NCBI GenBank assembly: GCA_951804945.1
Contig: OX638153.1
Location: forward strand, 30,442,001-30,506,000
DNA length: 64,000 nucleotides
DNA from: Podarcis cretensis
Taxonomy: Eukaryota
Direction of reading: 5' to 3'
Shown here in pieces: positions 14,709 through 61,665 of this stretch; position 1 is the first letter of the stretch, and each line of letters starts with the position of its first letter. The position numbers and the translations under genes are program-made. A model generated the notes under the pieces. It saw only the letters and a program-made list of their open reading frames with translations. It had not been told where the DNA came from and searched no databases.

Positions 14709-14735
14709 GGACTAAAGGGGCAACCTGGAGAGAAG
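14709..14735 (+). CDS. COL13A1: COL13A1 exon, GLKGQPGEK (COL1, probable cassette)
   Basis: gcccag|GGA...AAG|gtgagt; 27 bp; three perfect Gly-X-Y triplets. Confidence 0.88.
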
Positions 14736-38040: not shown

Positions 38041-38202
<162 letters not shown>

Positions 38203-40469: not shown

Positions 40470-40568
40470 GGTGAACAGGGACAGGCAGGAATCCAAGGGC
40501 CTCCAGGGCCACCTGGGCCACCAGGCCTCCCAGGGACTCCAGGACAACCTGGACCAACTGGACCAGCT
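40470..40568 (+). CDS. COL13A1: COL13A1 exon, [33 protein letters not shown] (start of COL2)
   Basis: cctcag|GGT...GCT|gtaagt; 99 bp; 11 perfect triplets. Confidence 0.95.
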
Positions 40569-40942
40569 GTAAGTACCTCTTCAATTGCTTGTGTCTGTTT
40601 CCCATACTTCCCGAAGAACCAAAGATCTGGCTTTTACCTCCATGGTGTTTCTGCAATGGTGGTGCCCCAAAGCCTTTCTTCTCCCATGTTACATGAGGAC
40701 TCCATTTCCTCTACCCCAGCCTGTGCGAACTTCCAGGGTGAAGAAGTCACACTCTGGCTGCAATTATGTCACTCTCAGCAGGACGCCCAACTTTTAAAAG
40801 CCTCAAATTCTATTTGATGTTCTGGTAACAGCACCATTCCTGCAGGGACAGTAAGCATTTTCAAAAGGTCAAAATCACTCTTGTTGAAATAAGGGTTTAC
40901 CAAGCTGGCGTCTCTGAAAGACACATTTCTGTGTTGCCTTAG

Positions 40943-40984
40943 GGAAAAGCAGGAGAACCAGGGAAGCCTGGCAAGGATGGAAAG
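40943..40984 (+). CDS. COL13A1: COL13A1 exon, GKAGEPGKPGKDGK (no counterpart in recalled human protein)
   Basis: ccttag|GGA...AAG|gtatct; 42 bp; Gly at every third codon. Confidence 0.82.
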
Positions 40985-41970
40985 GTATCTGTTTCATCTT
41001 TTCCTTTTCTACGGTTGCTGCATTTGCTTGCATGAATGTGATTTATTTCTTGGTGCCTTCAAGGGACATAATGAATGCTGGCTCAACAGTGCCATACAAC
41101 TGCATGCATTAAGGGAAGGGTAGGCAAGCATTGAAGGGAGTTGGTCATTCAGTGACCATTCTCTTGCCAGCTTCATCTGAATGTAGTCTGCTAAAAGTCC
41201 AGTTACTCGGTTTTCGGATTTTAAAACCCCACTGAACTCTAGGATTTATTTTTTTTTAAAAAAAAAGCCCTATGAACTTCAGCCTAATGATTTGAGTGCA
41301 TGATGGAGGGTTAACTTGAAATAATTGGGAGTGAGGATTTTTCTCAACTCATCTTGCTTTAATCCTAGGATAAGCACTTATTAGCACAAAACAGGCTTAT
41401 TATCTGTGAAAAAGAGAGGGAGGGAAAGAGTCTTGAGCTGCAAACACACCATACATTTGAAGTACTTTTAAAGGATATCCTCCCTACCTTAAGAATCCTA
41501 GGAACTGTAGTTTGTTAAGGGTGTTGAGAATTGTAGCTCTATCAGGGGTGATTTACAGTGCTTTAATGGTGCGGCTTGTCTGCAGTCATGGGCCTGAAAT
41601 GCATTTTTTTTTTTTTTTTTTTTGCCATCCCAATAAATTCTGTCTCTTCAAATTTGGGACCATAGCCTAGTAGTTTGGGTGTATGGAAAGATGTTTGTGA
41701 AGTATCAGCTGACATTTATTAAAATGAATAGTTCAGGGTCTATAAAGGAGAAATAATGCAAGATGGTGCATGCTTGATATGGGGCTTAGAATTCATTTAC
41801 TTACTACAGAGGATAATTTCTGCATACATGATTTAAGTAATAAAAGATAAAATATATGGTGGTATGGTATAAGGAGAAGTAAATGTAGTACAGACCTTAA
41901 CATATTGCCCAGTGCTGTGGGGATTTTCAGGTTTTTACTGCTTCATGATGTCATATGCTTTTATCTGCAG

Positions 41971-41997
41971 GGCTTGCCAGGACCTCCTGGACCAAAG
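41971..41997 (+). CDS. COL13A1: COL13A1 exon, GLPGPPGPK
   Basis: ctgcag|GGC...AAG|gtgagt; 27 bp. Confidence 0.94.
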
Positions 41998-43503
41998 GTG
42001 AGTAAAGCAACTCAGAAGAAATACCAGATATAAAAACTGCCCTCTAAAATTTCAAATACTTTGTGAGCAAAATGTGAAATGCAGTGAAGTCCAGAATGTG
42101 GTTATAAACTGTGTTCTCGGGATGCTGCAAAATGGTTTAATTACAAGAGAGTTAGTCTATCATGCTTTGAGAATGAACAAGGGAAAACCCTACACACACA
42201 AAAGTATTAGGGATCTTCTAATTAATTTGTTTATTTAAGGATCCATGACCCTGACTTGTCATGTTTAATGCATTTTAGAAGCACAGGCTCAAATCTATAT
42301 ATAGCAAAGGAACAAGTTCTAAATAAACTTACTGTGTATGTGCCTTTGGAAGGTATAGGAAAATAAGGACAACCTGTTTGCGTTAATGTGTTTATTAGCA
42401 TGAAAATTAGTAATGCGTGAAGAGCTCATGTTCCTCCTACTCATATTCTTACCTCCACATAAAACCAGTTTTGAATCAGGCCCTACCTGATTTAGAACCA
42501 CAAACTAAGAGCCAGTTAGAAGAGGTTGGGAAGTATGCCAGGAACTAGCTAGGAAGTAAAATCATTCTTCCACACCTTTTGAACAGAGAGAAACTTAGCT
42601 TTATAAACCTGCATACCTGTAATGAGCTCCACAGCACAATTAAGATTGGGTTGGCAGGCTCTGGAGGAGGAAGCGGAGGAAGAAGAAGAAACCGAGGAAC
42701 AGGGATCTCCCCTTTCCACCCTGATTTCAGTTACTTTGGAAGAGAGAGCAGGGGTGCAGGTTCTCCCCTCTGACCTTTTTTAGGGAGGGCTTTGGTCAAC
42801 TGAGAGGGAAGCTGAACAGGGAGGCATCAGTGACTGAACAGGAGGGTGCAACCTTGTCATTTAGAACCAGGCAGGGAGCAGACCAGCTTGCACCGATGGA
42901 GTGTGTACTTGCAAAATTGTCATTCTCACAAGGTGAGAGAGTCTCGTGAGTGAGCATCCCAAGCCTTGCTTTACAAAGCTTGGCAAGAGGGGCAGGGAAA
43001 CTTGTTGGGACATATTCATCGCTTCTGTCCAATTCTGAACTTCTTGCCTGCACCTGAACTCCTTAATCCTGACTCCTGAGCACTGGGTCTGCTGCCAAAT
43101 CTGCACTGTTACTTGCCTGAATAAAGATCTCTTTCTTAACTTCAAGGAAGAGCTTCTGTCTGAATGTGTTGGGCGGGAGCCAGGACAATATTTTTGATAC
43201 TATAGAATTCTCCTTGCTACTGCATGCCACTGCTTTTTCTACTCCTCCAAAGAGGGGCAGGTAATACCCAACATTTGGTCACACAGAGATCCCTAAAGGC
43301 TAGAATGGTCCAATATTAGAGTTAAGTGAGCTGAAAAATTTGCAAGGGACATGAATACCCCACAGCTCTTCTTGGGGACTCCTGTATCTGTCTATGTCCC
43401 CCTCAGATTCTTACGTTCATGTTCATAAAGGGAAAGGGGTTTCAGTCTGAATGCAACCTAACTCAATCCTTGTTTGTGTTTTTATTTCAATTGGCATTTA
43501 CAG

Positions 43504-43539
43504 GGGGACCCTGGAATTCAGGGGTACCATGGAAGAAAG
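43504..43539 (+). CDS. COL13A1: COL13A1 exon, GDPGIQGYHGRK
   Basis: ttacag|GGG...AAG|gtatgg; 36 bp; same as recalled human peptide. Confidence 0.96.
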
Positions 43540-44751
43540 GTATGGTTGTTGTTTTTTAGAAGCATAAGACTAGAAAATGAAATAAGCACAGCAGAGTTTG
43601 AAATACATTAATGTAGATCTGAGCCATCTGGGAAAGTGCTGGCAAAGATACACCATCCTTGCCTTACTCATGCACACAGACACAAGCATATCCTGGTTAT
43701 CACACTTTGCTCATTTCCTACCTTGAGCAACTTCGGCTGGGAGTGATGGGGCTTGAAGTAAGTGTGACTTCTTCCCCTGCAGCCATCACAACCTCTGTCA
43801 TGCCCCATGGGTAGAATCTGTTAACAAGAGGGTGGGACTAGAGAAGTTTCCAATTTTTCAGGCTCTCTTGGTTGCTTATGACAGTTTCTGCCAGGAACAA
43901 CTGTAAGCCCCTGAAGATTTGACACCTATCTGGAATAAAAATGAGTTTGAATCCACATTCACATGCAAAATGTACAAACTCTGGGTATCCTTCAGTGGTT
44001 CCACCCTTGGCTGAATCTGATTAGACCCGATCCAAACTGTCAGAGGGGCACATGAAAACCTCCTTGCATGTAGAAAGCTAATGTCAGGAACATACATAGA
44101 GAGAGATTTTGATAATGTGAGCACTTTCGAAGAAGCAATTCCCCATGTATCTTCTGGGATGGTACAGTCCACTGAAACGTTTGGGTCAGCTCCTACCTAC
44201 TTGCCTTATATGGCTGGTCTTACTTACCACTTTGTTGAAGTTTGTGACGCTTCTGCTATTTTTACAATAGTCCTTTTATTATGATTTCCTTGATTTATCG
44301 TGCTGCGAGTTATATTGAATCTTATAAGTCTAGTAGGTTCATTTTGGTGCTAGGGTTGAGCCCCAGCCGTTTCCAAGAGATGGCTTCTAAATCTTGTGAC
44401 TTGGGTCATGGAACTCAGGTGTTAGGTGAAACATGAGGAAAGTGTTGACTTGGTTTGGTTGGCATCTGTCTCGGGAGACAATGGTGCAGTGTGCCTTTGG
44501 GGGTGAAATCAAACTATTGGAAGGTTATAGTGCCTGCTGTGGCTGTAGATACTGATACAGGAGAGGTATGTTTTGTTGTTGCTTTTTTGAATACCTTCTT
44601 GTATTAATCCAGGCAGGACAGCAAGGATGTCATCCTGAGATTACTGTTCACCACTTCTTTAATAATATTTCTTCTTAGCCAGAAAACTTGACTTTTTATG
44701 ACCCTTATCTGTTCCTATTCCTTCCTGTCTTTCCTTGTATCTTTTCCCCAG

Positions 44752-44823
44752 GGTGAGGTGGGTGAGGCTGGCTTACCTGGCTTACCTGGCACCCCTGGCC
44801 TTCCTGGTCCTTCTGGCCCAAAG
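44752..44823 (+). CDS. COL13A1: COL13A1 exon, [24 protein letters not shown] (no counterpart in recalled human protein)
   Basis: strong pyrimidine tract, ccccag|GGT...AAG|gtaact; 72 bp; 8 perfect triplets. Confidence 0.9.
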
Positions 44824-45538
44824 GTAACTTTTGCATTGCACCAGCAACTTCCCATTCAACCGATTGCTACTTCACTGTGTTACAACAATGATGTTCATAT
44901 GAACATCCCATACATTGACAAGAGGAGTGGTGTTGCACCCAGAGGACATTCTGCACACATGTATGGCTTAAGGCAAATATTTTTTCCCAGTCTTGACATG
45001 AAGATTTAGTGACCCATTGTGATGGGTAGTAGGTACACTCTCTCCCCCGCCCCCCGCCTCACTTTTGCTAGGGCAGGTGAAAACACCACTCTTTGCCCTG
45101 GAATTTCTAATTCCTGCTGCAGAGGCTTTCTCCCATTAATTAGTGGTGAGAGGAATGTATTTTGCAGTGCTTTCTCCTATTCTGATCTCATATGTTCTAG
45201 AATTGAATCCTGGTATTGAAAACAGATGCTATGGCTGGGTTCTAGCCCAAACGATGTTCTGTGCTCTTGTTTCTGGTCAAAGAAAGTTGCTTGGTTTTAT
45301 AGTGCTTGAAAAACCTGTGGAGCCAGAGACAATAGAAGAAGGAAAAAATGTATGTGTACACTGTGCGCTCTGTCATACCATCTTACATTTTTTTTTGTCT
45401 ATCTACAACCTACATGGTTTTCAAGTGTGCCACCCTTCATTTCTCATCCATTTCTCATCCCTAATTTCTTATTTCTGCCTGTCCTCCCCCCTCTTTTTCT
45501 ACCCCCCCATTTTCTTCTCTATGTTTTCCCTTGCACAG

Positions 45539-45565
45539 GGTGAAAAGGGGGAGCCTAGCATGAAG
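45539..45565 (+). CDS. COL13A1: COL13A1 exon, GEKGEPSMK (no counterpart in recalled human protein)
   Basis: about 110 nt of AG-free pyrimidine tract, gcacag|GGT...AAG|gtaggc; 27 bp; the third triplet starts with Ser. Confidence 0.78.
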
Positions 45566-46141
45566 GTAGGCATGGTGTCAATCTGGTATGGGAATTGTTA
45601 CTCAGAACAATGTATTGTTATAAAAATCTTGACCCAAGACAGACCTGTGGCCTATTTAATAGCATATCCATCTGTGTTGTGATTAACCACTAGCAGACTT
45701 CCATGTCCTGGCTCCACTAGGCACACACAGAGAGACACGGTGAAATCTATCTTTATGAGTTTGGTGGAATTTGACTCTTTGCAAAGGCATTTCTTTGACT
45801 ACTCAAACTGGCTGATGATTTCTTGCCCTTCTGTATCTTGTGAGACGGGTTGGGGTTTCTTCACAATGTCTGGTTAGCTGACACATCAAACCCACTCTAA
45901 AATCGGCAGATCCTGATGTTGAGGTTTGGCATGCTCCTTTCTTTTCTTCTGATGCTCGGCACCCTTTTAAGAGAGGCTAACATGATTTCATGCCCATATG
46001 TTATCTATTTGATTAAAATGTATATTGAGCCTATAAATTTTGAATATATCCCTGTGTTTTTTAAAAAAGGTATTACAACTTTGGCCAAGATCCACAAAAG
46101 ACAAGGCAAACTATAACAGGCTGTATGATTTAAATGTCTTC

Positions 46142-46284
46142 GGGCTGGTTCTAGCTCAGTTGGTTAGTGTGATGCTGATAACACCAAGGTTGCAGGTTCA
46201 ATCCCCGTATGGGAGAGCTGCATTTTCCTGCATTGCAGGGGGTTGGACTAGATGATCCTCAGGGTCCCTTCCAACTCTACAATT
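46142..46284 (+). mobile_element. tRNA-derived SINE with CR1-like 3' end (same family as 35580-35720)
   Basis: TAGCTCAGTTGGT A box, GGTTCAATCC B box, ggtcccttccaactctacaatt end. Confidence 0.82.
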
Positions 46285-46361
46285 AAACTCTACTTACAAT
46301 TTACACACTACTCTACAATTACACACTACTCTACAATTACACACTACAATTACACACTACT
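46285..46361. repeat. Tandem expansion of the SINE tail (about 18-bp CTCTACAATTACACACTA)
   Basis: direct reading. Confidence 0.85.
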
Positions 46362-47377
46362 AAAAATGTCTATTTGGATAGCTTGTCTTTTCAATGTACC
46401 CGCTACAACTTTCTGAGACAAATTTGATTTATTAATGTATTTATGTGCTGCCCCCTCACATACAATATCAAGACGGTGCAAAACAAGATATGCTAATACA
46501 ATTGGCTTCCCAGCACATGTATTGAGGTAATTTAATGGTCATATCCTCCCTATTCTTTTTTAAGTACAGATGCTCCATTCTTCCCTTATTCCTTACTATT
46601 CATGAGCAAAAGAAATACATGCACTAAGGTACTAATAGGAAAGAAAACTTGACATCCGTCACCTACTGTGCAGAAAGGCGGCCCCTTATAAACTGCTGCC
46701 CTAGGCTGCTACGTAGACTGACTTCATAGTAGGTTGCAATGAGTCTGCTTTCAGAGACACCACAGTTATTCACATGTTGTGTCTGTCATTACCCAACAGC
46801 AAGTTGCATATTAAGAGGAAGGTGGGTAATCATTAGCAACTAATATCAGTGCTAACTAGCATATCCCAGTGATGTTCTCCACACCTACCTAGAGGCTGCC
46901 TCCTGATTTTCCGGGCAGCTGAAAAAAACATACACATTCTCCAAGGTGAAAAGGATTATACATCAAGAGTTTCACAACCTGTCTGTGAGCACAGCCAGAT
47001 CATTAAACCCTGGAGATCTGGAGATCTTCTTAATCCAGGTTTTCCAATTGGATTGTGATGAGAAGGAAGCGTCAATTTCATGGTTAAGAAAAATCAAAGC
47101 TCCATGAAACTTGTAGTTTAAAGAGGAAACCAGCAGGAGACTGTCCTGGTGGGAAGAAATGAACAGCATTTTGTCTCTTCCTCCCCCCCCCCCCCCCCAA
47201 CAGCCCACCCTCAAGCTTTGAATTGAGATCCTGGGCTGCCCTCTGCTGGTTTGTTAGAAGCAGAAACAAATTACAGTACGTTGTTTCATGTTAGCTTTAG
47301 TGACAATCAAAACTGTTTTCCCATTTTTGGCACTTGTGAACACATACGTTTGGTTTATATACTGTTCAGATCCCTTT

Positions 47378-47386
47378 ATCTATCTA

Positions 47387-47417
<31 letters not shown>

Positions 47418-47440
47418 GTCTATCCATTTATTTATTTATT
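47378..47440. repeat. Compound (TCTA/TCTG/TTTA)n microsatellite
   Basis: direct reading. Confidence 0.9.
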
Positions 47441-48554
47441 TCCTGGTGTCGTGCGTATATGCGGTCGCATGTGAGTTGATCACACATAAGTAGGGTGTGT
47501 GTGCCTGTATATATTAGTGAAAATGACATTCAAATATGCATTCTGCATTTTTGAAATTGCTTACAAAAATGTGTATATTTGGAAAAATTGTAAACAGAAA
47601 TGTGTTTATTAAGAGAAATTAGCACGTAAATGTACCGGTACTCAGATTTTCATGAGAAGGTTTTTTTAAAAAATAGAATACTGATGTAGAAATGTGGTGA
47701 ATTGAAGTTAAGTTTGGGGAAATGAGGAACTGGGAGCAACTAAAATTGTCACAATCATCCATCCATAGTCCAGAGAAACACTCATGTCTATGTGTTACAC
47801 ACAACAAGGAAGTGTCATCCAAAACTCCAGCATCACTGAATTGTACTGCCTTTCTCCTCCCATAGTATTTAGGCTCACTTGCTCCATGTGGTCCATTGTA
47901 CATCATCCCATTTCTGCAGTCATTATGTGGTAGGAAAACACATGATATGATGATGCCAGGGTAAATGATCGCTTGCATTGCTGGGGAGAACTTGACACAC
48001 TACCCATACAGCAAAAGAGTTGATCTGTGTTTTGGTCGCCGTTCAGAGAAGTTGTTTTCAGATGTAATAAATTCAACACAGTGAATTTTCTGGGAAGGTA
48101 GTTAACATCAGCCAGTTGAAGTGACATTGAGAAGGTCATAAGTCAATCCCTACACCTATGGCATATTAGCATAATATCTCTGCAACACTACCTGACACCA
48201 CAAGCCATGAGCTGCACTGATTATTTATTTGCTGGCACAACCAGTCTCTAGTTTGATTCTGGCATTAAGTTTTGACATTTTCCCCATGCAAAAGATGGAG
48301 AAAACCATGTTCTCATCATGATAACTTTAACACTTCAAATGTTTAATAATAAATTCAGAATTTACTAATTCTATTGTAAGAAATTATCACAGCAATGGTT
48401 GACTTCTACTCTGAAGCGTCAGAGCTTCTTGAGATCTTATGGAATACAGTTTTCTCCAGTTTCAGTGGTTACCAACAAAGGTCATATGGGCACCTATGTT
48501 TTCCCCTCACTCTTCCACCTTCATTATCTTTATCTTGTTTTTTTCCTATTCCAG

Positions 48555-48599
48555 GGGGAGAGGGGCATGCCAGGGCTACCAGGAAAACAAGGAGTTCAG
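48555..48599 (+). CDS. COL13A1: COL13A1 exon, GERGMPGLPGKQGVQ
   Basis: ttccag|GGG...CAG|gtattc; 45 bp; recalled human GERGMPGMPGKHGAK. Confidence 0.94.
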
Positions 48600-51500
48600 G
48601 TATTCTGCAAGGAATGGAGTCTGACTTATCCAACCACCCTTACCCATACCTCTCAACTGACCCTGAGTCTCAGAGATTACACCAATTACCTTTAACATTT
48701 TCTACATGTATTCTGTACATGTATTTCCTACTCTTAAAATAAAAAAGCTCAAAGTCTGATTTAGCAAAAGGAAGAAGAACCAGGAAGAAATGTTTTGCTG
48801 AACAAATGGCATGCCTGTTCCTCAACAGTTTTCCCATTGTGGAAAGAAGTGAAGTGCCTTAAGATACCCACTGCAATGAGTGTGCAGTCCACTAAACCAA
48901 TCTGTGCTTCATTTGCGCCACGGAAACAGAGAGCATAAATTTGACTGATTTGCCATTGGATCAAGGTTCAAATGTTTATTACTTTCAGAGGAGTGGAAAA
49001 GAATTCCACTTGAGTATGTGCTTAGTTTTAAATTTATAGCTGCGATTCAGATTAAACTCCAGTGCACATATTTTAGGTCAGAATAACCCTTATTTAAAGG
49101 ATTCCGGAATTGCATTCATTTACATGTTAAAGGACTGACATGCCATCTCTTCAATCAAATCCACCCTCTCAATATATATTTATCCCCTTCATGTCTCTAG
49201 CCCATAGTTACTAAACATTACTCACACCTGATGCATTTCTGAATGTTTCTTTCACCTGTTATTACATAGAATCCCTGATTTCCATCTTCTGTCCTTGTGT
49301 TTTTTAGCTATGCCCCTGATTTCTGTTTCAGAAAGTTGAGAGGTATGATCCTTCTCCCTCTTCTTCCATCCCCATCTGCTTCACACCTTTCAATGTTTGA
49401 ACCTGTTTGCCCTTCTTGGTTGATGATTTAAATCTGCTTCTCCAAGCAAGTCTCTTTGTTGTTCATCTATTTCACTAAACTCTCCAAACCCCCATTATTC
49501 TATGTCTAACAATAAATATTTCCATCCGTTCCCACTTCTTTCCCTAGGACCACTTGCTCTTGTAATCAAATTCTCTCATTGAAGAGCCTAACAGATACTA
49601 ATATGTAAAATGTGCCCACCTCCTTTATTTAGCCAATAAGCACTCATCTCAAGGTTCCATGTGCACTGCAATTTTTGTCTAGGAAATTCTTACCACTTGA
49701 TATCCTTCCCAAAGGCTTCCAGTATCTTTCTTTCCCTGCCCAGGTGTTACATGTTACATATTGGCTGCTTTGATGAGCTTGCTCCCCATTAGCATCATTT
49801 CCAGTCATTAATAGGGAGCAGTGAAATACAGTGGCCATTATTTTTGCCATAAAAATGCTACTGAACGTGACCTCATCATGGTACTGGTCCTTCTTCCTGC
49901 TGAAACACTTGTAAGTGTATTTCAAATGGATCGAGCCATTACATTCTGCATATCCATGGCCATCTTGAGGCCGTTGGGAAGGATATGTGGAGACACAAGG
50001 TAACAGCCTTTATAGGTGTACTTCCCAACTTTGGCTGGGTTCACATGTAATGCTAAACCACAGTTTATGTTACCAACTGAGTTGCAGTGAGCATTTGGCT
50101 TGTTCCCTCCTTCTCTGGCAAAACCATGAAGAGGAGTTAATAATTTTTTGTTTCCTTACTTGACTAACTGCAGCTGGTTGTGATGTTCAAACCTGGGCAG
50201 ACTTCAGATACTCTTAAATATGGTTTGCTAAAACAAGTCAGCTTCAGACTGTGACTTATAAATCTGGCTTGTTTGAATAGATTGTAGCTATGATTAACCA
50301 CAGTTTAGGGTTGCACAGAATGAACAGCTGTGGTTAATGTAAAATGGAAGCAGAAGATTCTAGCCTTCCTGCATCTATGCCAAAAGAGGAGAGGAGAAGA
50401 GAAGTGAATGCAAGAGTCCTAGACTCATTGTGGCTTCTCCTCATAATGTTAAGACATAGTTTAGCATTACATGCTGATGGAGCCATTATGGACAGAGCTG
50501 TGGTCACTTATCATAGGGAGGCCATTTTCTGTAGTATCCCTTTCATCAGCCTCAATATGTGCTTCAGCCTTCACAAAGAATCTCCCAAGTTTGATTCAGA
50601 TGAACAGCCAAAATAGCTAAGTCATCACAGGACAATATTTTTTACGTGGACTGTTCTTTTAAATGCACTGACATAATGCAGATACTGCAGCTGACAATCT
50701 CCTGGATAATGTGTGAAGTCATGTGTAAAAATAACTAGTTGCTTTTTGTGTGGTGCCTTTACCACCTCAACTGTTTGCCTGAATCCAACTGCAAAGCAAA
50801 GGTTAAGTAATTGGTAGAGATATGAGGACAAAACCAAACACTCATTTGTCACATTTTATGCAAAAAATCCAGCGTATGTGAGGAATTATTTATTTTCCTG
50901 CCATCCAAAGTACAAAGATCTCCTGACAGATCCCATGGCTGTATAGCATTCTTGCTACATTTCACTTCATTCCCCCACCTTAATGTCCCATTACTAATAT
51001 TCACATTTTCCCTCAGTCATAAAATAACACTAGATATGCACAATTGCATACATGAGACCAGAAACTGTTCAGTAAAGTTGATGGTGAAAACCTTAAGATT
51101 ATGAAACAGCCAAGGTTTGGTTTCTGCTAAAAGCAATAGCACAGTTTCTCTTTCAAAACAATAGCAAGATTCATTGATAATGCTAGTGTAGAGGAACTGT
51201 GAAACACTCCTGTCCAGACCCAAGAGTCTTAAAACCTCCGCCCTCAGGAAATTATTTCCACATTGATTTGTCTGCGGAAGGACCCCATTGCATGTGTTGA
51301 GGAACCCTTTGTGGTACTGAACAATCTATAGTGATTTCTAGGGTGTCCTCTCAGCACACACAGTGCCTCAGCCAAGCACATGTGGACCAGTGATGTGCTC
51401 CACAATGTACCTAGCACTCCCTGCAACCAAACATTGCAGGAGATGGTAATGGAAGGCAAACTGTGCTTGAGAGAAGTTTGTCTGCCAATACTGAACTCCT

Positions 51501-52198
51501 CATTGAGGAATCCCTTAGGGCCAAGCCAGAGGTGACAGCAGCAGACCTTGCTCTTCCTCTTCCTCTCTCCCCCTCCCCGCCCCACCTTTCTCTTTCTCTC
51601 TCAGAACTAAAAGAGGAACACAGGTGTGGATTTAGGTTTAACAGCAGCTTATCTCCCAGCAGTGTGCCCCTTTAGGTCAGAGGTGGGGAATCTGCAGTCC
51701 TACGGGAGTTATGAGATTCTGCTAGTCCCAGCCAGCATGGGCAATAGTCAGGGCTAAAGGGAGTTGTAGTCCAAAAACAGCTGGAGATCCACTTTTGGGA
51801 AACATTGAGCTGGATGGACCGGTGGTCTGTCTCAGTATCAGGGAGCTTCCTGTGCTCTTGTGTGTTGATGCTTTTGTTATCTGTGCTCTGGCATCAGAAA
51901 AGTCTTTGCGGTGAGAGGCTAGAGGGAAGGAAGCAGTGGGTTTGGTAAGGGATGCATTCACACACTCCCTTTGCTATGAAAAATCAGATGCACCCAACAT
52001 GCCCTGTGCTGCTGTCACATCTAGTTTGGCCCTAGTAATCTTCCAAGGCTGTTGGCTTCTATTTTACATTACCTTAGGTATGCTTTGCCCCCTCCCCAAG
52101 AAAAAAAAGAGAAACTTTCTGAAACTTTCTCTCTTGAGCAAACACCTTTTTTTCCACCATCTATCAAAGTATCCCTGTCTTTCCTTTCTCTCTGTCAG

Positions 52199-52231
52199 GG
52201 GGATCCTGGAATTGCGGTGGCAGGCATGAAG
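52199..52231 (+). CDS. COL13A1: COL13A1 exon, GDPGIAVAGMK
   Basis: tgtcag|GGG...AAG|gttagt; 33 bp; recalled human GAPGIAVAGMK. Confidence 0.94.
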
Positions 52232-53494
52232 GTTAGTTTTCAAGTGCTAACCTCTCAGGGGGGCTCTAGAGCTCTCTTAGGAGATGAAAACAGAGGTGTG
52301 CTCTCAGCATCAAATAGTGGGGGAGCAGAGAACTGAAAAGCAAAGCACAGCCCTGAGATTAGAGCTGTTTTAATAAAAAACATTTTTTAAAAAAGAATTA
52401 TCCTTATGACTACTTACTATTTTGCCAGTTCAACTGCTAAATTTTGGGGTTTTATTGCACTCAGAAACATCACATCTAGAGTTTTGTAATGTAGTAGAGA
52501 TTATAATCCACTGGAGAGATCCTATGAGTACAAAGTTCCTTCATAGTAAAAAAAAAAGTGGCACTTAGTCAATAGTGCAAATGTTTAAGATAATGTCTGG
52601 TCAAAGGAAGTTCATAATGTGCATCCATCAGATTAATTAAATAGCCACAATGGCAGATTCTCATATCATGCACTATCCACCGGTGTTGTTTTTTTTAAAA
52701 AAGACCTAAAGCAGCTTTGATGTGCCAGCAAACCAGTGCTTAGAGTGGTGTACAAAAATATAGTACCACAGCCCACATGAGATGCTGGTGTTACAGAGAC
52801 ATTATAACACTGTTGCAAACAGAAACACAGATCAGAGTGATTTCTTTTAAATGATCATAATATAACTTTTCTCGCAGACTAGTGTGGAATCTAAACACAT
52901 ATAAAAAACTCTGTGAAACGCTTTTTTAATGTTTTGAAAAGAATATTGAATTTGCCATAGCTCACCATTGCCATCTAATGCCACATTTGTATAATATACT
53001 TTACAATACACGTTTTATTTGCAGTCCTAGGCCTGCCTTATCAGAGTAATTTTATAGCGCTACCAAAATTCCTTTTAAAAGGTAGGATATGTGCAGAGGG
53101 TAGAATTTTATATTTGTACTCTGCACTGAAGCAAATGGGACTTCCTCCTCCCTGGGATTTCTGTTGGTGAGGGCTGGGCCACCCAGAGCTCATTCACACT
53201 TCCATTTGTCCCATGATTTCTAGACACTGGTCTGAGAAGTTTTTTTTTCTTGTCCTGCCACTTTCTCCGGGAAAATCTGCAGTTTTTTTGTTGAATCAGA
53301 ACAAATGGTATTTGGGTTTTCTGCAGATTGACGTTGGTTCCAATTCAGCAGTAAACCACAGGTTTTCTCAGGGAAAGTGGTGGGATGGAAGAAAAACCTC
53401 TTGGACCAAGAAATGGGATGAAGGGAAGTGTGGTTGAGCCCCCAGTGTCATTACCAGAGTTTCTCCAAGAGCAACACATTATTGTGCTCCATTA

Positions 53495-55483
53495 TATTAT
53501 TTCGATTTTATTGCATTAGCCATGTGGCCATAGCATAATATACATAGAAATAACAACATGGAATAGGGGTGGGGAGATAAAAGTGGATGTCGTCCTGGGC
53601 AAATACTTTGAAAAAATGGGGATAACAAAAGTAACGGGGGATTTAAAACATCGAGTGACTGAGAATACAAAAACAGATTCGATTGTGCGGCGTATCGATT
53701 ACATGTGTGGTATTAAAGAAGAAGTTGGTGCCGCTTTCCTCTTCATCACACTAAGCAGGAAATTAGCTGTCATCTCGGTAATCCAACAGTCAGAATCCTG
53801 CAGAAGAAGGGACACTATCCAAGGCTGGATTGGGAGATGAAGCTTGTTCACGAGAGGAGTTAGAAACCGAGATCTTTCTTCTGTCCAGTTGGGACAGAAG
53901 AGCATTACATGTTCCATAGTCTCCAGAGCCGTGTCATTGCAGGTGCATGTTCTATTTGCGATGGAAACTCTGGAGTAACGACCCGACAGAACTGCTGTAG
54001 GAAAACAGTTGAGACGGGCACAGGTAAAGGCCCTTCGCTTAGCCTCCGAAGGAATTGTGAAGCAGTATAGAGGGATCCCTTCAGGGGGTGGAATAGCTAG
54101 GGCTAAGCCTGAACACGGCCCTCTTGCATGGGAAGCTGTGTTAGAGAAGTCAAGTTGCTGTAGCTTCTTTTTGATTAGAGGTAGGGCCGCCGGGCTAATA
54201 TACTCTAAGTTAAAAACAGTTTTGCGGTTCAAGTTGAGAAGAGAGCGGAATTTGAAATTAATTGTAGTTTTCCAAGGAGAATTATGAATATCTCTTAAGA
54301 TCAGATTGGAGAAACCACCTCTCATTTGAGCATCCGATGCTAGTAGGTTGGAGCTATAGGAAATGGCTCGACTCCATGCTCGTTTTACAATGGAGGGCTG
54401 GGCGAACTCAAGTCGTAGGGCTGCACCTGAGACACATCTCGGGACACCGGAAAGAGATCTCAGAAACATGTGAAGTGGGCGATCCAAGTTACCTGATATT
54501 GCTGTAGTCCATACTTCGCAGCCATATAATAATTTAGGGACAACTTTGGCATTAAATATTTGAATTGCTGCTGGAAGGTGTTTGCCGCCCTTCTGATGAT
54601 AAAATCGGACAATGGCATTAGAGGTCGTGGTTGCAGCAAGAGAGGCAGATTGTAGATGGGTGGTCCAGGAGAGATTATAAGTAAATATTAAGCCTAGATA
54701 TTTAAAGGCTTTTACCTTTTCTAAGTAGCCACCTGTGATCTTAAGCGGCTCCAGCTTGAGTTTACGGGAACGAGTGAAGTGGAGGACTTTCAATTTTTTA
54801 TAATTGATATTAAGAGCTTCCGCCTTACAATAGGCGATAAATGCATTAACTGCATTTGCTAGGTCCGCAGCTGTTCTGGATAAGATGACGGCATCATCTG
54901 CATAGAAAAGGGAAGCAACGGGGTGGCCTGCTAGGTGAGGAGGATACTTAGTTGCTAGCTTCAAAGGGGAAAGAGCATCATGAAGATAAAGATTAAACAG
55001 TAAAGGGGCCAAGAGACAACCTTGTCGGACACCCCTGGCCGTTGGGAATGGGGTGGTAAGGGAGCCATTGGGATCAATTCGAACGCAAGCTGTGGTGTTT
55101 GAATAAAGGGAAATAATTAGGGAGAGGAGGTGCGGATCGATTCCCAGATGGGCAAGTTTGGACCATAATCTTTGCCTAGGAATGGAATCAAAGGCGGCCT
55201 CCAGGTCCATGAAAGCGGCAAACAGGTGGCCTTGCCTTGGTGCAGTGTATTTACTGGCAAGGTGATAAAGAGTTAGACAGTGGTCCATGGTTGATGCTGA
55301 CTTCCGGAAGCCAATCTGTTCTGGCGGTAGAATGTTTCTCTCATGTACCCATGAAAGGAGTTCTTCCAGTAAAACAGCGGCAAATATTTTCCCCGGAATA
55401 GATAGTAAACTGATGGGGCGATAGTTCCCAGGGGTGTTTAGCTGGCCGCCTTTGAAAATCGGAACTATTGTAGCTTCTCTCCA
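53495..55483 (-). mobile_element. 5'-truncated non-LTR retrotransposon, probably RTE-X clade
   Basis: Uninterrupted frame 55483-53699 (NYRPISLL, QIGFRK, GVRQGCLLAPLLF, FYADD, KYLG, LLYGCEVW, C-terminal GRY..RTCTC..ETMEHVMLFCP knuckle); AATAAA and short tail; TSD CTCCATTA at 53487-53494 and 55479-55486. Confidence 0.85.
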
Positions 55484-56056
55484 TTAATTTCTATGGGAGA
55501 ATGTAAAGAAGGGCACTATGGCCCAAATCAACATTGCTCCTATCTGCTAGTCATGGTTCTCTTTTTCCAAAGTTGCCTCCTTAGGACAATATTTGCAGGG
55601 CAAAATCTGCAAGCAAGGGAAGGCTTCAAATCCTTTCCCATCTACTGATTCTCCCCAGAAAATAGCCCTGACTGACATTTGCATTAGAAGGAAAACATCA
55701 GAACTCAATGTTTTCTTCATTAGTTCCGCCCTCAAACTTGAATATTAGCAACTCTTGCCCATCTGTATTTCTGCAGATTCTGTTTTTGAGTCTTGAAATA
55801 AAATACTTTTGGTCCGTTTAAAGCTGGATAGAAAATTGCATGAGTGAATTTCACATCAGTACACAGCTGTGTGAGACCTAGTGAAACCCATTAGATAGAC
55901 GTAAATGCAAATTGAAATAAAGCTAAAGTGGGGCTTTGGCATGAGGTCTTCTTTAAAGAATGGTCACCTACTCTGCCTGTTAGTGCTGGAAGTAAAAGAA
56001 TTGCCCCTCTCCTCTCTTCTTCTCTCAGTTTGTTTTTCCATCTTTTTCTAATGCAG

Positions 56057-56083
56057 GGTGAGCCAGGGATTCCAGGAGCAAAG
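56057..56083 (+). CDS. COL13A1: COL13A1 exon, GEPGIPGAK
   Basis: atgcag|GGT...AAG|gtattg; 27 bp. Confidence 0.94.
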
Positions 56084-56273
56084 GTATTGCACTTAAAGAA
56101 ATGTCTGTTCTTAGTCTGCTTTGTCTATGTTTTATTTTAAGTCTCTTAAGGAGATCTGGTGTTATAATCAGGATGTGAGTATGTGAATACTTTGGTTAGT
56201 AGAGATGTTCCCTATTTTCCTCTCCCCTCCCCAGCAGGAAACAAGTGAAATTTCACCAGGGTCTGTAGAAGTT

Positions 56274-56274
<1 letters not shown>

Positions 56275-56322
<48 letters not shown>
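56275..56322. repeat. (CTAT)12 microsatellite
   Basis: direct reading. Confidence 0.95.
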
Positions 56323-56633
56323 GGAGCTACTATATCTTAGCTCTAGATCTCCTCCCCAAGCTTCAATAGAAGGGCTTCAATAATGACCTGCTTTACAGGG
56401 TTGTTGTGTAGATTACTAAGATTAGGTATGTGAAGTGTTTTCACCACTTTAAAACTCTATATAAACCCTACTGATGTTGTTGTTGCTTTCAGCAACAAAA
56501 GTAGAAGTTTTAGCAAGTTTGCTGTTTCTTTTAGGTGTTTCAGGGTTTGGCTATGTTGTGCTTGGAGACTACCTGTCAAGCGTAACAGACATAATTCTCT
56601 GCCTCCCTTTTCTTACCCATCCTCCAAATAAAG

Positions 56634-56696
56634 GGAGAACGTGGCGTTGCAGGGAAGATGGGCCCCCCAGGTTTGCCAGGGAAAAGGGGGCAGAGG
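56634..56696 (+). CDS. COL13A1: COL13A1 exon, GERGVAGKMGPPGLPGKRGQR (no counterpart in recalled human protein)
   Basis: ataaag|GGA...AGG|gtagga; 63 bp; 7 perfect triplets. Confidence 0.86.
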
Positions 56697-57899
56697 GTAG
56701 GACATTGTCAAATGCTTGAGCTTGGTTTGCTTATTTGTATTGTCCTTCCCCCAAACCTTGACCAGGTTGCTCTGAGCTGCATTTTCATGCTTGCCAAAGA
56801 ATGCTTTTCTCCTGTTGCTTACATGTGTGGAGTGTGCTGTGTATGCCCAAAACTAAACCCAGAATTTGAAGCACCCCTGTTCAGAATACTCAAACATTAG
56901 CCATCTTCTGAAAGAGATGTGTTTATATATTGTGTTTGCTTTCACCCTTGGAATAACAAACAGGATAAGTATTGTGATGGGAGGACAGAACGATTTGGAT
57001 GTATGCTGGGATGCCGGTTTATAAGAGGATGCAATTGCTGCTGACTTTGAAGATAGCAAAATCCATGCAACTGATTAGTATTAGCTCTGGCTGCAGCTTA
57101 TTAACTCTTCACATTTCCCAACTTAATTTGAAAATAAAGCACTCCATTTAATGCCTTGTGTGCACTTTGAAATATAAGTGAACTCAACTTCTCCACTGCA
57201 GATCCAGATAGTAGATGAAAATGGCCCTCTGAGTAAAGAATTTCCATCTGTACTCAAAAGTGTTATTGCCATGTCCATTTGGACCACTGCATATGCGTAC
57301 CATGCAGACACAGAAAGCAGTTATATTTAGAACAGAAGTTGGCATCCTGAGAATCTCAGCTGTTGTGGTTTAACTTTGAAGGCTGTCTTGGTTGTAGAAA
57401 ACAGTTGGAAAGGAAAGTCAGACAGAGCTTTCAGCGGTCAGATAATCAGGTTTGCTCCACACAGCTCTCACTACTTCATTCTGCCCTACCACTTGGCTCA
57501 TTCTTCCTCAATCTCTGTGCTCCCCTTCTGTTTCCCTTCCTTTCAAAGGCCTATTGCCATAAAAAGAACTGCCCTTGTTAACTCTCAGACCTGCTTTATA
57601 CATCATGCTTGCACATGCAATATTAGTGATGCCCTTCCCATTAAGCAATGTGTCACTCATATGGTTCATACCCATGTGATCCAGCCATCAAGCAGAATTT
57701 TACAAAAATGGGCTCTCACTGGGGTACATGAAATGATTTCGGAATAAATGGTCTCAATATAGCCTTCCATACAGCTGGTGCTATTATAAATCAGTGTGAT
57801 CAATATGATTTAAATCAAGTTTCCTATTTTGAAATCCAGACATTTCTTGAGCAAAAATGCATTCTGGCCAGCTCAGATAATTAGAACAGACTGGGTTGC

Positions 57900-58600
57900 A
57901 TTTCCCTAAGGATGGGGTTACAGTCTCTGGAGTTCACAGTCTGGTGCTGCTGATTGATGAAGCACTGTCACTGGAACTGGTAGATCGGCTGCAACCCCTG
58001 CTAGATTGTTCAGCCACAATTATTGATGCTCTGGTAATATTTAGTGTGGACTCGTGAAATGCACTCTGTGTGATATATCCTTTGAAGACGTTGGAAACTT
58101 CCGTTAGTACAAAACACAGCAGCTATAGAGACTGCATCCCACCAGTTCTTAAATAACTATAATAGTTGCTAGTTCCTTTCTAGGCACATTTGAAAGTGCT
58201 GGCTATTGCCTGGATAACTTGGGGTCTGTTACTTAAAGGACAACTCTCTCCCACTTGATTCTACCCAAAATGCAAGGTCTTCCCTCAAGGCCTTTGTTTG
58301 GATCCCACATCCATCTGACCTTGTATTTACAATGTCTTTATTGGACTAGCTACCCCACCACGCATTATAAAGTGTTTTTGGAAGCAAATTCCTTTGCTTA
58401 TTTTCCCAGGCATCTCGGTGTGTTGAATAGCTGATTTAAATTGCAGTTTGATGTCTGCTTTGGTTTTTTTGGGATGGATGCTGCTGTTTCTGTGTTTTAC
58501 ATTGTTTTGATGGTGAATTTTTGTGTTGTTTTTATTCGTTCTTTTAACTGCACACTGCCTTTGGGGCATAAGCCAAAGGTGGCTCATAAAAAGATTAAAA
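57900..58600 (+). mobile_element. Highly decayed L2 3' fragment
   Basis: Remnants resembling the L2 C-terminal motifs 'KLQLVQNAAA' and 'HITPVL..LHWLP...FKVL', followed by a T-rich 3' UTR; boundaries approximate. Confidence 0.5.
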
Positions 58601-59901
58601 TGAATTTGTTTGCAACTGAATGCTGCTTTTATGTAATGCAAAGGCACAACTCAAAATGTTTGGCCATTCAGCCCACAGACCCTTTTGTACTATGGAGTGA
58701 TCTCTCCTTATAGCTGAAGCATCAGTGGTGTAGTTAGCCACTAGGACACCTGGGGCGGCGTGCGTGCCCTGCACCCAGGGGCAAGGGAAGCCACCCACTG
58801 GGTGGGGTTTAGCCGGGGCAGGCCACCGCCTCTCCCTCATCTGTAGGGCAGCTGAGGGGGAGGCAGCAGGTGGCTGCAAGCTCCACACTGCTGTTTCGAC
58901 AGTGTGGAGCCTGCAGATGCATGAGCCACCGTGCCACTCCCAGGAGAAATGCGTGGTTTGGGCACCCCCGCGGTGTGGCACCCAGTGGCGCCCCCGCCCT
59001 CCCCCCCAGCTATGCCTCTGTGAAGCATGCACACCTGCACCAAAACTTGGCAAAATCGCTGAGGCCTCGTCCACACTTCCGCTTGTCCTATGTCTAGAAA
59101 GTATGGTTCAAGTGGTTTCCCCTCTCCTTTTCCAGGGAAAACTTGGTCTTTAGCTCTAAGTTGAGCAAATGTGAATCTGGAAAAAAGCCTTAATTGCTCA
59201 TTAGCTCAAAGTGGGGCAAGAAGAAGTGTGCTAAGCTTGGGTTGCAACAGGTGGCCAGAACTTTCCTGAAACTAGGGATGATCATGGTGTTTCTGTGTTA
59301 GATAACTGAAATGGCAATACCCATATTGTTTGTTTTATCAAGCTTAGGTTCTTAGGCATAACACAAGGGTATAAAGCCATCCATACAGGCACTGTAGATG
59401 GATGATCTTGGACATATACAGGATTGCATCACCTTGAGTACCTGTGACACACCTGCCAGTTTCTGGCCCCCAATATCAAACCATCAGATAAATGATTGTC
59501 CTGTGAAGATGGTTTCTTCACAAGATGTTTGTGAAATGCAGCCTTTCAAAACTGGAAAGTTCATTAGATGGTGATTAGTTTTGAGAGATTGTTTCATTTT
59601 AAACCATGTTCTTTGAAAGAGAGAAACTTCTTGTAGCCAGAACTTTTTTAAAAAAAGAAAAACAACCCATATATGTGTGTGTGTGTAAAAGAAAATGGAC
59701 ACATGGCCATGCTGTGATATAGAATCAAAAGGCAAACAATGGTTCTTCGGAAGGAAAACTAGCAAAGGAACAGGAATAAAGCTGTAGACATACTTGCCAT
59801 GTTGTGTCCAAAGATAGATTTACCGCCATTCAGCTGATCCTAGTGCAGATTAAACCAATAATTGCAGTAGGTATCCAACCATGTGTATATTTCACCAACA
59901 G

Positions 59902-59955
59902 GGCGAGAAAGGAAAACCTGGTGATCCGGGACCTCCTGGAACCGTAGGACAAAAG
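59902..59955 (+). CDS. COL13A1: COL13A1 exon, GEKGKPGDPGPPGTVGQK
   Basis: caacag|GGC...AAG|gtttgt; 54 bp; positional match to recalled human GEKGAEGSPGLPGLLGQK. Confidence 0.92.
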
Positions 59956-60324
59956 GTTTGTTTTGTTACCTGGGAATGGGATGTGGTAACAGGTATATAT
60001 TCTTTATTTGCTTGCACAGAAACATTCAGGGAACAGGGCACCTTCAAATGTACATCTTTATGCTTCCATAAAAACAGCAAATAATCTGACTGGGGAAAAA
60101 TATTTCACTGGACAGATCTTTGTACATTTGTTTTTTTAAAACGTTTATAGGCCACACTTTCATATGAAATATCCACAAGGCGGTATACAGACTGAAAACA
60201 CACTATTATAGTAAAAATGTCAACACATCAACGATAGCTGGTTGGCAAGATTTCAGAACTGAAAGACCTGTTTGAATAATTCAGTGGTTGTTTTTTTCAG
60301 AAGATGTCTAAAAGCAAACTTCTA

Positions 60325-60565
60325 CAGTGGTACCTTGGTTTAAGAACAGCCCTGTTTACAAACTATTCGGTTTACGAACTCTGCAAAACCGGAAGTAGTG
60401 TCCCGGTTTGCAAACTTTACCTCGGTCTAAGAACGGAAGCTGAACCGTGGAAGGGCACTGGCGGCAGGAGGCCTCATTAGGGAAAGTGCACTTCGGTTTA
60501 AGAATGGTTTCGGTTTAAGAATGGACTTCCAGAATGGATTAAGTTCGTAAACCAAGGTACCACTG
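60325..60565. mobile_element. Tc1/mariner-superfamily (Tigger-like) MITE
   Basis: Perfect 18-bp TIRs CAGTGGTACCTTGGTTTA...TAAACCAAGGTACCACTG with TA TSD on both sides. Confidence 0.9.
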
Positions 60566-60843
60566 TATTGGCATGGAGTTCCAAGGGGGCCAACCACATT
60601 AAGGGGTTGGAAAAGCCGGCCAAATCTCAGAGGCAGGTTTCTCCTCCTGTGTGGACAGTGCTGGTTTTGCTAATTGGTTTCACAATTAGTATATGTAATG
60701 TCAGCACTCAACTGACTAAGGGGTATTAGCAGCAATACCTTCTCATTTATCACTTCCTCCCCTTCACTCGTTCAGAAAAAGCCTTGTTATAGAAATACAG
60801 GCATTACAATCATTTGACCACTGTTGTTTATTTGTATATCTAG

Positions 60844-60930
60844 GGAGATAAGGGAGATTCTGACAATGCACTTGGAGGAGGTAAAGGGGAACCTGGACCC
60901 CCTGGTTTACCTGGACCTCCAGGACCAAAG
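60844..60930 (+). CDS. COL13A1: COL13A1 exon, [29 protein letters not shown]
   Basis: atctag|GGA...AAG|gtgagt; 87 bp; recalled human [29 protein letters not shown]. Confidence 0.95.
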
Positions 60931-61596
60931 GTGAGTAAATTCTCCTTGCTCTTTTATATACATACTGTGGGCTCCATCTGTGCTTGGGTTGCTCACCAGC
61001 TCCACCTACTTCCCAATCCCTGGAGACTTTGCCAACCCTGACTCCTTACAGTTCAACAAAGCCCCTTTTCCTTACAGCTCACTACCCACCCCTCCCTACA
61101 CTGCAGGAGCGGCCCTTGAAGAGGGTAAGGTGGAGGGGAGTGGCAGGTGGCAGCAAAACAGGACTAGGGAGCAATTGCTGGGGAGCTGCACCAGTCTGTA
61201 CTGAATGTTCATCTGTGGCTCACCTGCCCACCTGGGCCACTTCTTCCCTCCACCTTGCCCTCTTCCACTAAGGGGTGGTTTGTGTGTTTTTGGCAAGCTG
61301 TCAACCCACTGTAGTTTGCAGCACCACCTGTCCTTGGCCAGATGAACCACAGCTCGATAACATCTTTATGCAAATATAGTAGAGGAAGATATGCTTACTG
61401 AAGACTATTCCAGAGTAGGTTAGAATCTGACTATATGTGCACATAACTGCACTACCAGTTTTTCGGTGAAGCACGTCCTGTTCTTTGGGGCTTTCTATTC
61501 AAGATACTTGAATACTTAGAGATACTTTCAAGCACTGAAGTATCTCTAATCTAGATGGAAACTCTGGTTTCTAACCACCTATGTACTATTTTTCAG

Positions 61597-61665
61597 GGTC
61601 CCAAGGGTGAACCAGGAAAGAATGAAATGGTAGATTACAATGGCAATATCAATGAAGCTTTACAG
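61597..61665 (+). CDS. COL13A1: COL13A1 exon, [23 protein letters not shown] (COL2/NC3 junction)
   Basis: tttcag|GGT...CAG|gtaata; 69 bp; start of the NC3 coiled coil. Confidence 0.96.

Follow-up and report, generated by a model that had tools for sequence, protein, structure and literature searches.

Identity of the locus

The window analysed here, a stretch of 64,000 nucleotides from Podarcis cretensis (contig OX638153.1), carries on its + strand the exons of COL13A1 that encode COL2, a collagenous domain of collagen XIII. The assignment is based on the NC2 exon and exon e4, in which 22 of 22 and 12 of 12 residues, respectively, are identical to human collagen XIII (PMC4678570 supplement 1). 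Nine COL2 exon peptides are found in the human and lizard proteins in unchanged order, and NC3 and the C-terminus are conserved. NC2 and NC3 divide the lizard chain into three collagenous domains, and the C-terminus keeps its two cysteines. An N-terminal exon of the XIII type (cytosolic tail, transmembrane segment and coiled coil; L052:4538-4843, 102 aa) encodes a segment with 76–77% identity to bird and 56–57% identity to frog proteins; two of its six matches are named collagen alpha-1(XIII) chain-like, a name also borne by 5 of the 10 clusters that were looked up. A putative furin-type site (RXXR), RHREAR ahead of CNCP, lies in a juxtamembrane exon (L053:~7512-7581).

A second NC2 exon was looked for and was not found, and an upstream CpG island was rejected as exon 1 of COL13A1, the island being another gene's. 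A fourth MACIT paralogue was likewise rejected, given that the C5 locus has XIII-identical peptides; the genome (G000) holds at least three MACIT loci (C5, C9 and C2), the searches giving lower bounds on copy number.

Exon map of COL2

Lizard COL2 comprises 13 exons, all of phase 0 and each starting with Gly, which would give 213 aa if all were included. They are placed below in slots, defined by the 15 phase-0 COL2 exons of COL25A1 in the same genome (G000:C9); A to D are the exons that a preliminary description had found to be extra relative to mammals.

38113..38178, + strand: NC2 exon of COL13A1, 22 aa, adjoining COL2 upstream (same 22 residues in human XIII)
40470..40568, + strand: e1, slot 1, 33 aa (sequence, COL25A1 slot placement)
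40943..40984, + strand: extra exon A, slot 2, 14 aa, with a register break (AG/GT, slot-2 match, swallow model)
41971..41997, + strand: e3, slot 3, 9 aa (sequence, slot placement)
43504..43539, + strand: e4, slot 4, 12 aa (sequence; direct e11 join in three runs)
44752..44823, + strand: extra exon B, slot 5, 24 aa (3' end joined to C in X16; swallow model)
45539..45565, + strand: extra exon C, slot 6, 9 aa, with one Gly replaced by Ser (joined to B and e9 in X16)
48555..48599, + strand: e7, slot 7, 15 aa, in human too (absent from four contigs, among the pieces listed)
52199..52231, + strand: e8, slot 8, 11 aa, landmark, in human too (absent from four contigs, among the pieces listed)
56057..56083, + strand: e9, slot 9, 9 aa (sequence, X16 joins)
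56634..56696, + strand: extra exon D, slot 10, 21 aa (flanking joints in X16 both GT..AG)
59902..59955, + strand: e11, slot 11, 18 aa (retained in every form among the pieces listed)
60844..60930, + strand: e12, slot 12, 29 aa, landmark (sequence, e11 join, slot placement)
60931..61596, + strand: intron of 666 nt, slots 13 and 14 (33 aa in human) absent (sequence, contig ends)
61597..61665, + strand: e15, slot 15, 23 aa, closing COL2 and opening NC3 (sequence, slot placement)

The first 9 residues of e1 are Gly-X-Y in the lizard and not in human, which adds nine helical residues at the start of COL2. Exon e11 includes the site that corresponds to the integrin alpha1 peptide of human XIII, with 8 of 12 residues alike.

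The preliminary description had presented A to D as four well-formed phase-0 exons of 68 aa in total. Their coordinates, AG/GT borders and frame hold and they are free of stops, but "well-formed" is too strong, because A breaks the triplet register with its 14 aa and C has Ser in its third Gly position. The acceptor of D is weak (AAG). Between 40401 and 61700, a mini-exon filter passed 11 candidates on the + strand, none on the − strand and a single one in 30 pooled shuffles. The four peptides are missing, as had been stated, from isoform 1 of human collagen XIII (sequence given in PMC4678570 supplement 1), the one isoform that makes up the mammalian comparison. Its COL2 has the 172 aa previously ascribed to it (residues 269–440 in the numbering of that supplement, counted here). 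The view of mammalian COL2 as a domain without alternative splicing is in line with the ten spliced exons reported in NC2, COL1 and COL3 (PMC12669723). The earlier figure of about 212 aa for a lizard COL2 with all exons is close to the 213 aa computed; as a product, such a chain was seen in none of the four runs, among the pieces listed.

Two exons had also been described as missing. In human XIII, 33 aa separate the e12 and e15 peptides (PMC4678570 supplement 1). These 33 aa are absent from the lizard, in which the coding strand of the intron at 60931-61596 shows no Gly-X-Y run of more than two triplets. By analogy with the paralogue COL25A1, the block probably corresponds to exactly two exons.

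Transcript forms

Two forms of COL2 are seen in contigs from four runs, with one contig per run; the RNA status of X1–X14 is a guess and X16 is unlabelled as to kind, and they are counted as RNA by their exon-to-exon joins alone. In X16 (organism F, near-identical), the 3' end of B, C, e9, D and e11 are joined without e7 and e8, and the joints 56083>56634 and 56696>59902 are both GT..AG. In X1, X5 and X10 (three studies, organisms A and E), e4 stands directly before e11, which leaves out 267 nt, or 89 aa. Among the pieces listed, the e4-e11 form was found in 3/4 runs, the B-C-e9-D form in 1/4, and e12 after e11 in 4/4. Three contigs run on past e11 for 485, 567 and 898 nt, the same as the 485, 567 and 898 nt predicted for a direct e12-e15 join; a zero insert is the only one of 51 sizes tried, from 0 to 150 nt, that agrees with all three ends.

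The COL2 of lizard collagen XIII is not constant, a result that goes beyond the preliminary description. The modularity proposed there proved stronger than claimed, with two block-skipping forms in RNA contigs, and three of the four extra exons (the end of B, C and D) occur in spliced RNA contigs, although it had been considered that they might never be spliced. A COL2 of 172 aa without alternative splicing was rejected as a description of the lizard gene; it is a mammalian feature and not one of the whole family.

The joints seen cover neither exon A nor the acceptor of B; A rests on depth arithmetic (3.82 in X5, equal to e1 + A) and on the swallow model discussed below, and the upstream contig spans of X1 and X10 are compatible with several exon sets, with or without A. 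The X16 contig with B, C, e9 and D has a depth of 18, and the short form elsewhere 17.7–26, with the proviso that depth reflects level poorly. Over the e7 bin, depth is 0.61 in X5 and 0 in X9 and X23. Unspliced pieces run into e9 in X1 and X10. X9 has depth in the bins of C, e9 and D and none on e11, and was not used as evidence; X23, a raw-read run, barely covers the exons. A first read mapping over 19.6 kb was swamped by intronic repeats and gave no COL13A1 splice among the 15 of 46 joints listed; the lack of X5 cover on D in that mapping is explained by the e4-e11 join.

Comparison with other MACIT collagens

Protein searches for a full-length XIII orthologue, including turtle, frog and fish, found none: they returned 0, 6 (one long and frameshifted), 1 and 35 matches, 34 of the last being fragments of 84–252 aa, and a PDB search gave 0. 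The sole outgroup orthologue is one broken swallow gene model, which is frameshifted and in which e1, A, e4 and B follow one another, with matches of 14 residues to A and 21 to B. From B to e15 the model has about 47 residues, interpretable as an e11-like exon and some 29 residues more; C, D, e7, e8, e9 and a clear e12 are absent, and the last 29 residues can also be read as partly e12-like. Public reptile and bird gene models presumably already contain exons A to D. A literature search on which COL2 exons collagen XIII has outside mammals found no paper within its coverage, outside which most subscription papers fall.

The preliminary description left open whether the extra exons are ancestral or gained in sauropsids, and the comparison with COL25A1 favours ancestry followed by mammalian loss. 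The 13 lizard XIII exons and the human-only block together give the 15 slots of COL25A1, in order. Both genes have the 11-aa slot 8, a slot 12 of 3n+2 length and the NC3 exon, and the intervals between landmarks hold the same number of exons in 3 of 3 cases (one for e1-e3, four for e3-e8, three for e8-e12); human XIII has 0, 2 and 2, with exon borders borrowed from the lizard. The 13 exons can be placed in the 15 slots in 105 ways that keep their order, and slots 13 and 14 are empty in the best-scoring one (273, next 264); its score was matched by 0 of 100,000 random placements, and exon lengths are correlated with those of the slots (rho 0.89). Exon A finds its best match, first of 15, in its own slot 2. 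COL25A1 retains all 15 slots. Divergence has left B, C and D unrecognizable as counterparts of slots 5, 6 and 10 (their own slots rank 9, 9 and 5 of 15 by sequence), and the joint slot score of A to D was reached by 22,935 of 100,000 random placements. As B, C and D have no sequence match to their slots, it is by position and count that they are taken as homologous. Taken together, A to D are likely ancestral exons, of which mammals would have lost all four; the lizard lineage likely lost two others.

Slots 13 and 14, lost in lizard XIII, are the pair naturally skipped in human COL25A1. In fibroblasts, exons 16, 19, 22 and 23 of that gene are skipped (PMC12669723). Exons 22 and 23 correspond to slots 13 and 14, as fixed by the positions of Gly382 (exon 21) and c.1198 (exon 23), and exons 16 and 19 to slots 7 and 10 if the human exon borders equal those of the lizard.

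COL23A1 (G000:C2) has slots 1, 2, 9, 10, 11, a slot-13/14-like exon and slot 15, its slot-2 exon being of 12 aa and the exon at D's position of 15 aa; slots 4–8 were looked for and not found. In the same gene, the slot 11 exon has been amplified to 20 tandem copies (G000:C2:61261174-61264733), a true tandem gain with 81% exon and 76% intron identity.

Splicing of mammalian XIII is reported for NC2, COL1 and COL3 (PMC12669723), in contrast to the lizard, where COL2 exons are skipped in blocks. The lizard COL3 differs from the human by about 48 aa fewer at one place and a 30-aa exon more at another, and the alpha11 motif GPKGER is found in both. COL-99 of C. elegans, the single invertebrate MACIT, has exon-skipping isoforms that shorten its collagenous stretches (PMC4678570), of which it has seven short ones, compared with three in XIII.

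Origin of the extra exons and alternative explanations

The most probable explanation is that A to D belong to an ancestral 15-exon COL2, of which mammals lost four exons and the lizard two, and that block skipping would set the length of the middle helix. A gain of B, C and D in sauropsids by duplication and divergence, with only A ancestral and the count match with COL25A1 due to chance, is quite unlikely. COL23A1 shows that exons can be gained in tandem in this lineage, the one outgroup orthologue compared is a bird's, and none of B, C and D has its own slot as best match; chance would nevertheless have to account for three interval counts out of three, for a human-only block that takes the remaining slots, for the COL23A1 exon at D's position and for the 9 aa of both C and slot 6. 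Nor do neighbouring exons or flanks resemble A to D in DNA (best local scores 20–35 of 54–144), a signature that an old duplication would no longer show. Collapse of the two missing exons during assembly is extremely improbable: the e12-e15 joint is deduced from contig ends and not read directly, but the window holds no N and the three contigs, from three studies, fit only a zero insert.

It is unlikely that the two forms are fixed species differences, or deletions in organisms A and E, and not alternative splicing within an animal. Among the pieces listed each form is indeed confined to its own organisms, F for the one and A and E for the other; yet e7 and e8 are intact in the near-identical genome of F and skipped by X16, the unspliced pieces show that e9 is present in the X1 and X10 genomes, and the trace of depth over e7 in X5 is a weak hint of a second form. 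Very improbable is the view of the extra exons as decaying relics, rarely spliced and without a selected role in the lizard. The skipping of B, C and D in 3/4 runs (among the pieces listed), the lost Gly of C and the weak acceptor of D would suit it, but frames and splice sites are intact, the bird retains A and B, and the depth of X16 resembles that of the short form, poor as depth is for judging level.

With phase 0 and a Gly start in all of them, any run of these exons can drop out, by skipping or deletion, and leave the frame intact, as the sequence shows. On the reading of ancestral exons with block skipping, the e4-e11 join would give a COL2 of about 124 aa, and the B-C-e9-D-e11 joins one of at most 187 aa. 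The collagen helix rises 0.286 nm per residue, from which rods of about 35 nm and 53 nm would be expected in the lizard forms, against 49 nm in human. COL2 may serve as a spacer of adjustable length, with the membrane or furin site on one side and the ligand-binding COL3 end on the other, and optional exons would be under weaker constraint, with different ones permanently lost in each lineage.

A more far-reaching proposal, which we hold only tentatively, is that of a length-tunable synaptic and adhesion spacer, its COL2 switched between about 35 and 53 nm by tissue-controlled skipping, with B + C and e7 + e8 as two-exon cassettes that exclude each other; mammals would have frozen one state, and in this lizard the COL2 of collagen XXIII would have gained some 400 residues. 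B + C without e7 + e8 is seen in one contig, and no joint has e7 + e8 without B + C among the pieces listed; COL25A1, in contrast, uses all four matching slots together. If the proposal is true, MACIT rod length would be a selected, lineage-specific trait.

Implications

The surprise is moderate, because COL13A1 is a familiar gene and turnover of in-frame exons is to be expected in collagens. The analysis provides a one-to-one exon map of collagens XIII and XXV and, with it, a map of COL2 segments that are dispensable in a vertebrate (slots 5–10 skipped, 13–14 deleted) and of those retained in the forms seen (e4, e11, e12 and e15, among the pieces listed). This is relevant to proposals of exon skipping in COL13A1 myasthenic syndrome and to the possible importance of rod length at the neuromuscular junction. 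The "constant" COL2 of mammals becomes a derived, trimmed and likely fixed state.

Exon content of the COL2 domain

The window (G000:C5:30442001-30506000) holds the middle part of a collagen XIII gene, and compared with the human chain (PMC4678570, supplement 1) the NC2 exon and the COL2 exon e4 are identical in the lizard. Exon 1 lies ~70 kb upstream, and its identity is 76-77% with birds and 56-57% with frogs.

L052:4538-4843, exon 1; protein matches named collagen alpha-1(XIII) chain-like

An intronless bHLH gene in a CpG island stands ~145 kb upstream of exon 1 (L038:~50-757); we take it to be neurogenin-3-like, which presumably fits the human neighbourhood of COL13A1.

COL2 is built from 13 exons across 40470-61665, each of phase 0 and with Gly first, numbered here by the slots of the 15-exon COL2 of the paralogue COL25A1. 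Human XIII contains none of the peptides of exons A-D (PMC4678570, supplement 1), which occupy slots 2, 5, 6 and 10, and the four extra phase-0 exons of the preliminary description are real, encoding 68 aa together, although "well formed" is too strong a term for A and C.

40943-40984, +, extra exon A, AG/GT ends, stop-free, 14 aa
44752-44823, +, extra exon B, AG/GT ends, stop-free
45539-45565, +, extra exon C, AG/GT ends, stop-free, Ser at one Gly position
56634-56696, +, extra exon D, AG/GT ends, stop-free

The mini-exon filter returned 11 exons on the coding strand, none on the opposite strand and one in 30 pooled shuffles. The helix is flawed in both A and C, because of the 14-aa length of the former and the Ser of the latter. 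With all exons included, COL2 would reach 213 aa (172 - 33 + 68, with 9 more helical residues at its beginning and 3 fewer in e1), near the ~212 aa calculated before; as a product this all-exon form is not supported by the forms seen, all of which skip exons.

The first nine residues of e1 (40470-40496) are Gly-X-Y in the lizard, whereas human has Ser at two Gly positions, and the NC2-COL2 border is therefore shifted; in the swallow gene model Gly is possible at the same places. In COL1, a 27-nt exon (14709-14735) encodes a peptide absent from human isoform 1 as printed (PMC4678570, supplement 1). The introns carry a LINE-like stretch, labelled by reading the sequence (~53500-55480, minus strand), and three short high-copy elements (46151-46287, 51724-51814, 60319-60570; 14-24 copies in ~550 kb).

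In human XIII, 33 aa separate the e12 and e15 peptides (PMC4678570, supplement 1). The corresponding lizard intron (666 nt) has no Gly-X-Y run of more than two triplets on the coding strand. Three long contigs extend 485, 567 and 898 nt beyond e11, exactly the branch ends predicted by summing the downstream exons, and of the 51 insert sizes tried, every multiple of 3 from 0 to 150 nt, zero alone fits all three (chance probability ~0.002). Hence e12 joins e15, judging by contig extents against exon sums, and the assembly lacks no exon here: the two exons suspected of being missing relative to mammals (slots 13-14) are gone from lizard DNA.

Splicing of the COL2 exons

Four contig sets, taken as RNA from their exon-exon joins, were compared over 55900-60310 (X1, X5 and X10 from organisms A and E, X16 from organism F); with one contig per run they report presence, not levels, and the two COL2 forms come from different organisms. 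In X16, 13 of 15 records are at least 99% alike to the window. Its GT..AG joints (56083 to 56634 and 56696 to 59902) stand on both sides of D, so D is in use. The 30 loose letters 5' of e9 comprise the terminal 9 of B followed by the initial 21 of C; the remaining 6 of C come next. The order is thus B, C, e9, D, e11, e12, with e7 and e8 skipped. In X1, X5 and X10, from three studies, e4 lies directly 5' of e11, leaving out six exons (267 nt, 89 aa); e12 follows e11 in all four sets. For exon A, depth sums were used: the X5 contig has a depth of 17.7, and the X5 mean of 3.82 in bin 40400-41053 equals that expected for e1 plus A (3.82) rather than e1 alone (2.68); the same sum for e4 gives 0.97 against 0.98. 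The anticipated splicing of the extra exons is therefore seen directly for B, C and D, and for A we infer it from depth sums, without a joint.

PMC12669723 (citing Peltonen 1997) places splicing of mammalian XIII in ten exons of NC2, COL1 and COL3, in agreement with the earlier view that mammalian COL2 is not alternatively spliced. In the lizard, two block-skipping forms occur within that domain, which bears out its proposed modularity.

Ancestry of the extra exons

The extra exons had been left as either ancestral and lost in mammals or gained in sauropsids. In the COL25A1-like paralogue (15 COL2 exons), landmark exons e1, e3, e8, e12 and e15 each rank their own slot first of 15, and the exon counts between them are 1, 4, 3, 0 in lizard XIII, 1, 4, 3, 2 in XXV and 0, 2, 2 plus the 33-aa block in human XIII. 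Among 105 order-keeping placements, the top-scoring one has no exon in slots 13 and 14, and 0 of 100000 random placements scored as high. By sequence, A alone among the extra exons matches its slot (B, C and D come 9th, 9th and 5th), and the joint score of A-D, reached by 22935 of 100000 random placements, is no better than chance. The COL23A1-like paralogue has a 12-aa exon in slot 2 and, at the position of D, one of 15 aa flanked by its e9-like and slot-11 exons. The single long orthologue found, swallow model P0003, reads COL2 out of frame; in the shifted frame, a reading ambiguous at many positions, e1, A, e4 and B are matched in order (A again with 14 residues, B with 21), while C, D and e7-e9 are absent from the model. 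Its ~29 residues 5' of e15 likely stand for slots 13-14, as far as the reading allows. At the DNA level, A-D show no resemblance to neighbouring exons and flanks. Taken together, these observations mean that parsimony favours an ancestral COL2 of 15 exons followed by reciprocal losses, the first of the two options; A-D are real, spliced and likely of ancestral origin. In the literature that could be searched, no publication addressed the COL2 exon content of non-mammalian collagen XIII.

Variation outside COL2

In COL3 (L003:2576-3962, window-extended 66576-67962), ~48 aa (three exon-sized blocks) of human and swallow are absent in the lizard, and a 30-aa exon (L003:3963-4052) is shared by lizard and swallow and missing from human isoform 1; contig extents agree with both differences. 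The losses are reciprocal, as they are in COL2. Contigs of X10 and X1 end exactly where skipping of an 81-nt and of a 36-nt COL3 exon would branch (L003:7833-7913; L004:1930-1965), likely further alternative splicing. The penultimate exon exists in two alternative versions of 87 and 78 nt in both COL13A1 and COL25A1, each ending in the same Cys-Pro motif, and the extent of the X5 contig fits the 87-nt version alone.

L004:9568-9654 and L005:988-1065, COL13A1 penultimate exons
G000:C9:25053553-25053467 and 25053013-25052936, COL25A1 penultimate exons

The COL23A1-like COL2 holds 20 tandem 63-nt (21-aa) Gly-X-Y exons (G000:C2:61261174-61264733, minus; L068:1174-4733), whereas human XXIII has one such block. 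The period is ~154 nt, all have AG/GT ends and are stop-free, Gly is intact at 139 of 140 positions, exons are 81% and short introns 76% alike, and third codon positions differ ~2x as often as first and second. If all 20 were used, this COL2 would gain ~400 aa.

Implications for the ectodomain

In human COL25A1, Gly382 lies in exon 21 and c.1198, with which codon 400 begins, in exon 23, which places slots 13 and 14 at exons 22 and 23. According to PMC12669723, fibroblasts skip exons 22, 23, 22-23, 16 and 19, and optional use of these slots is therefore likely old, permanent loss being its end state. The alpha1beta1 peptide of human COL2 (PMC7960628) maps to e11, which is kept in all lizard forms with 8 of 12 residues alike; one alpha11 site in COL3 is kept and one changed. 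Any effect of these differences on binding would be hypothetical. COL2 would measure ~124 aa where e4 joins e11 and no more than 187 aa in the X16 form. At 0.286 nm per residue of collagen helix, the rods would be ~35 and ~53 nm long, against 49 nm in human. A length that differs between forms would make the domain a spacer of adjustable reach.
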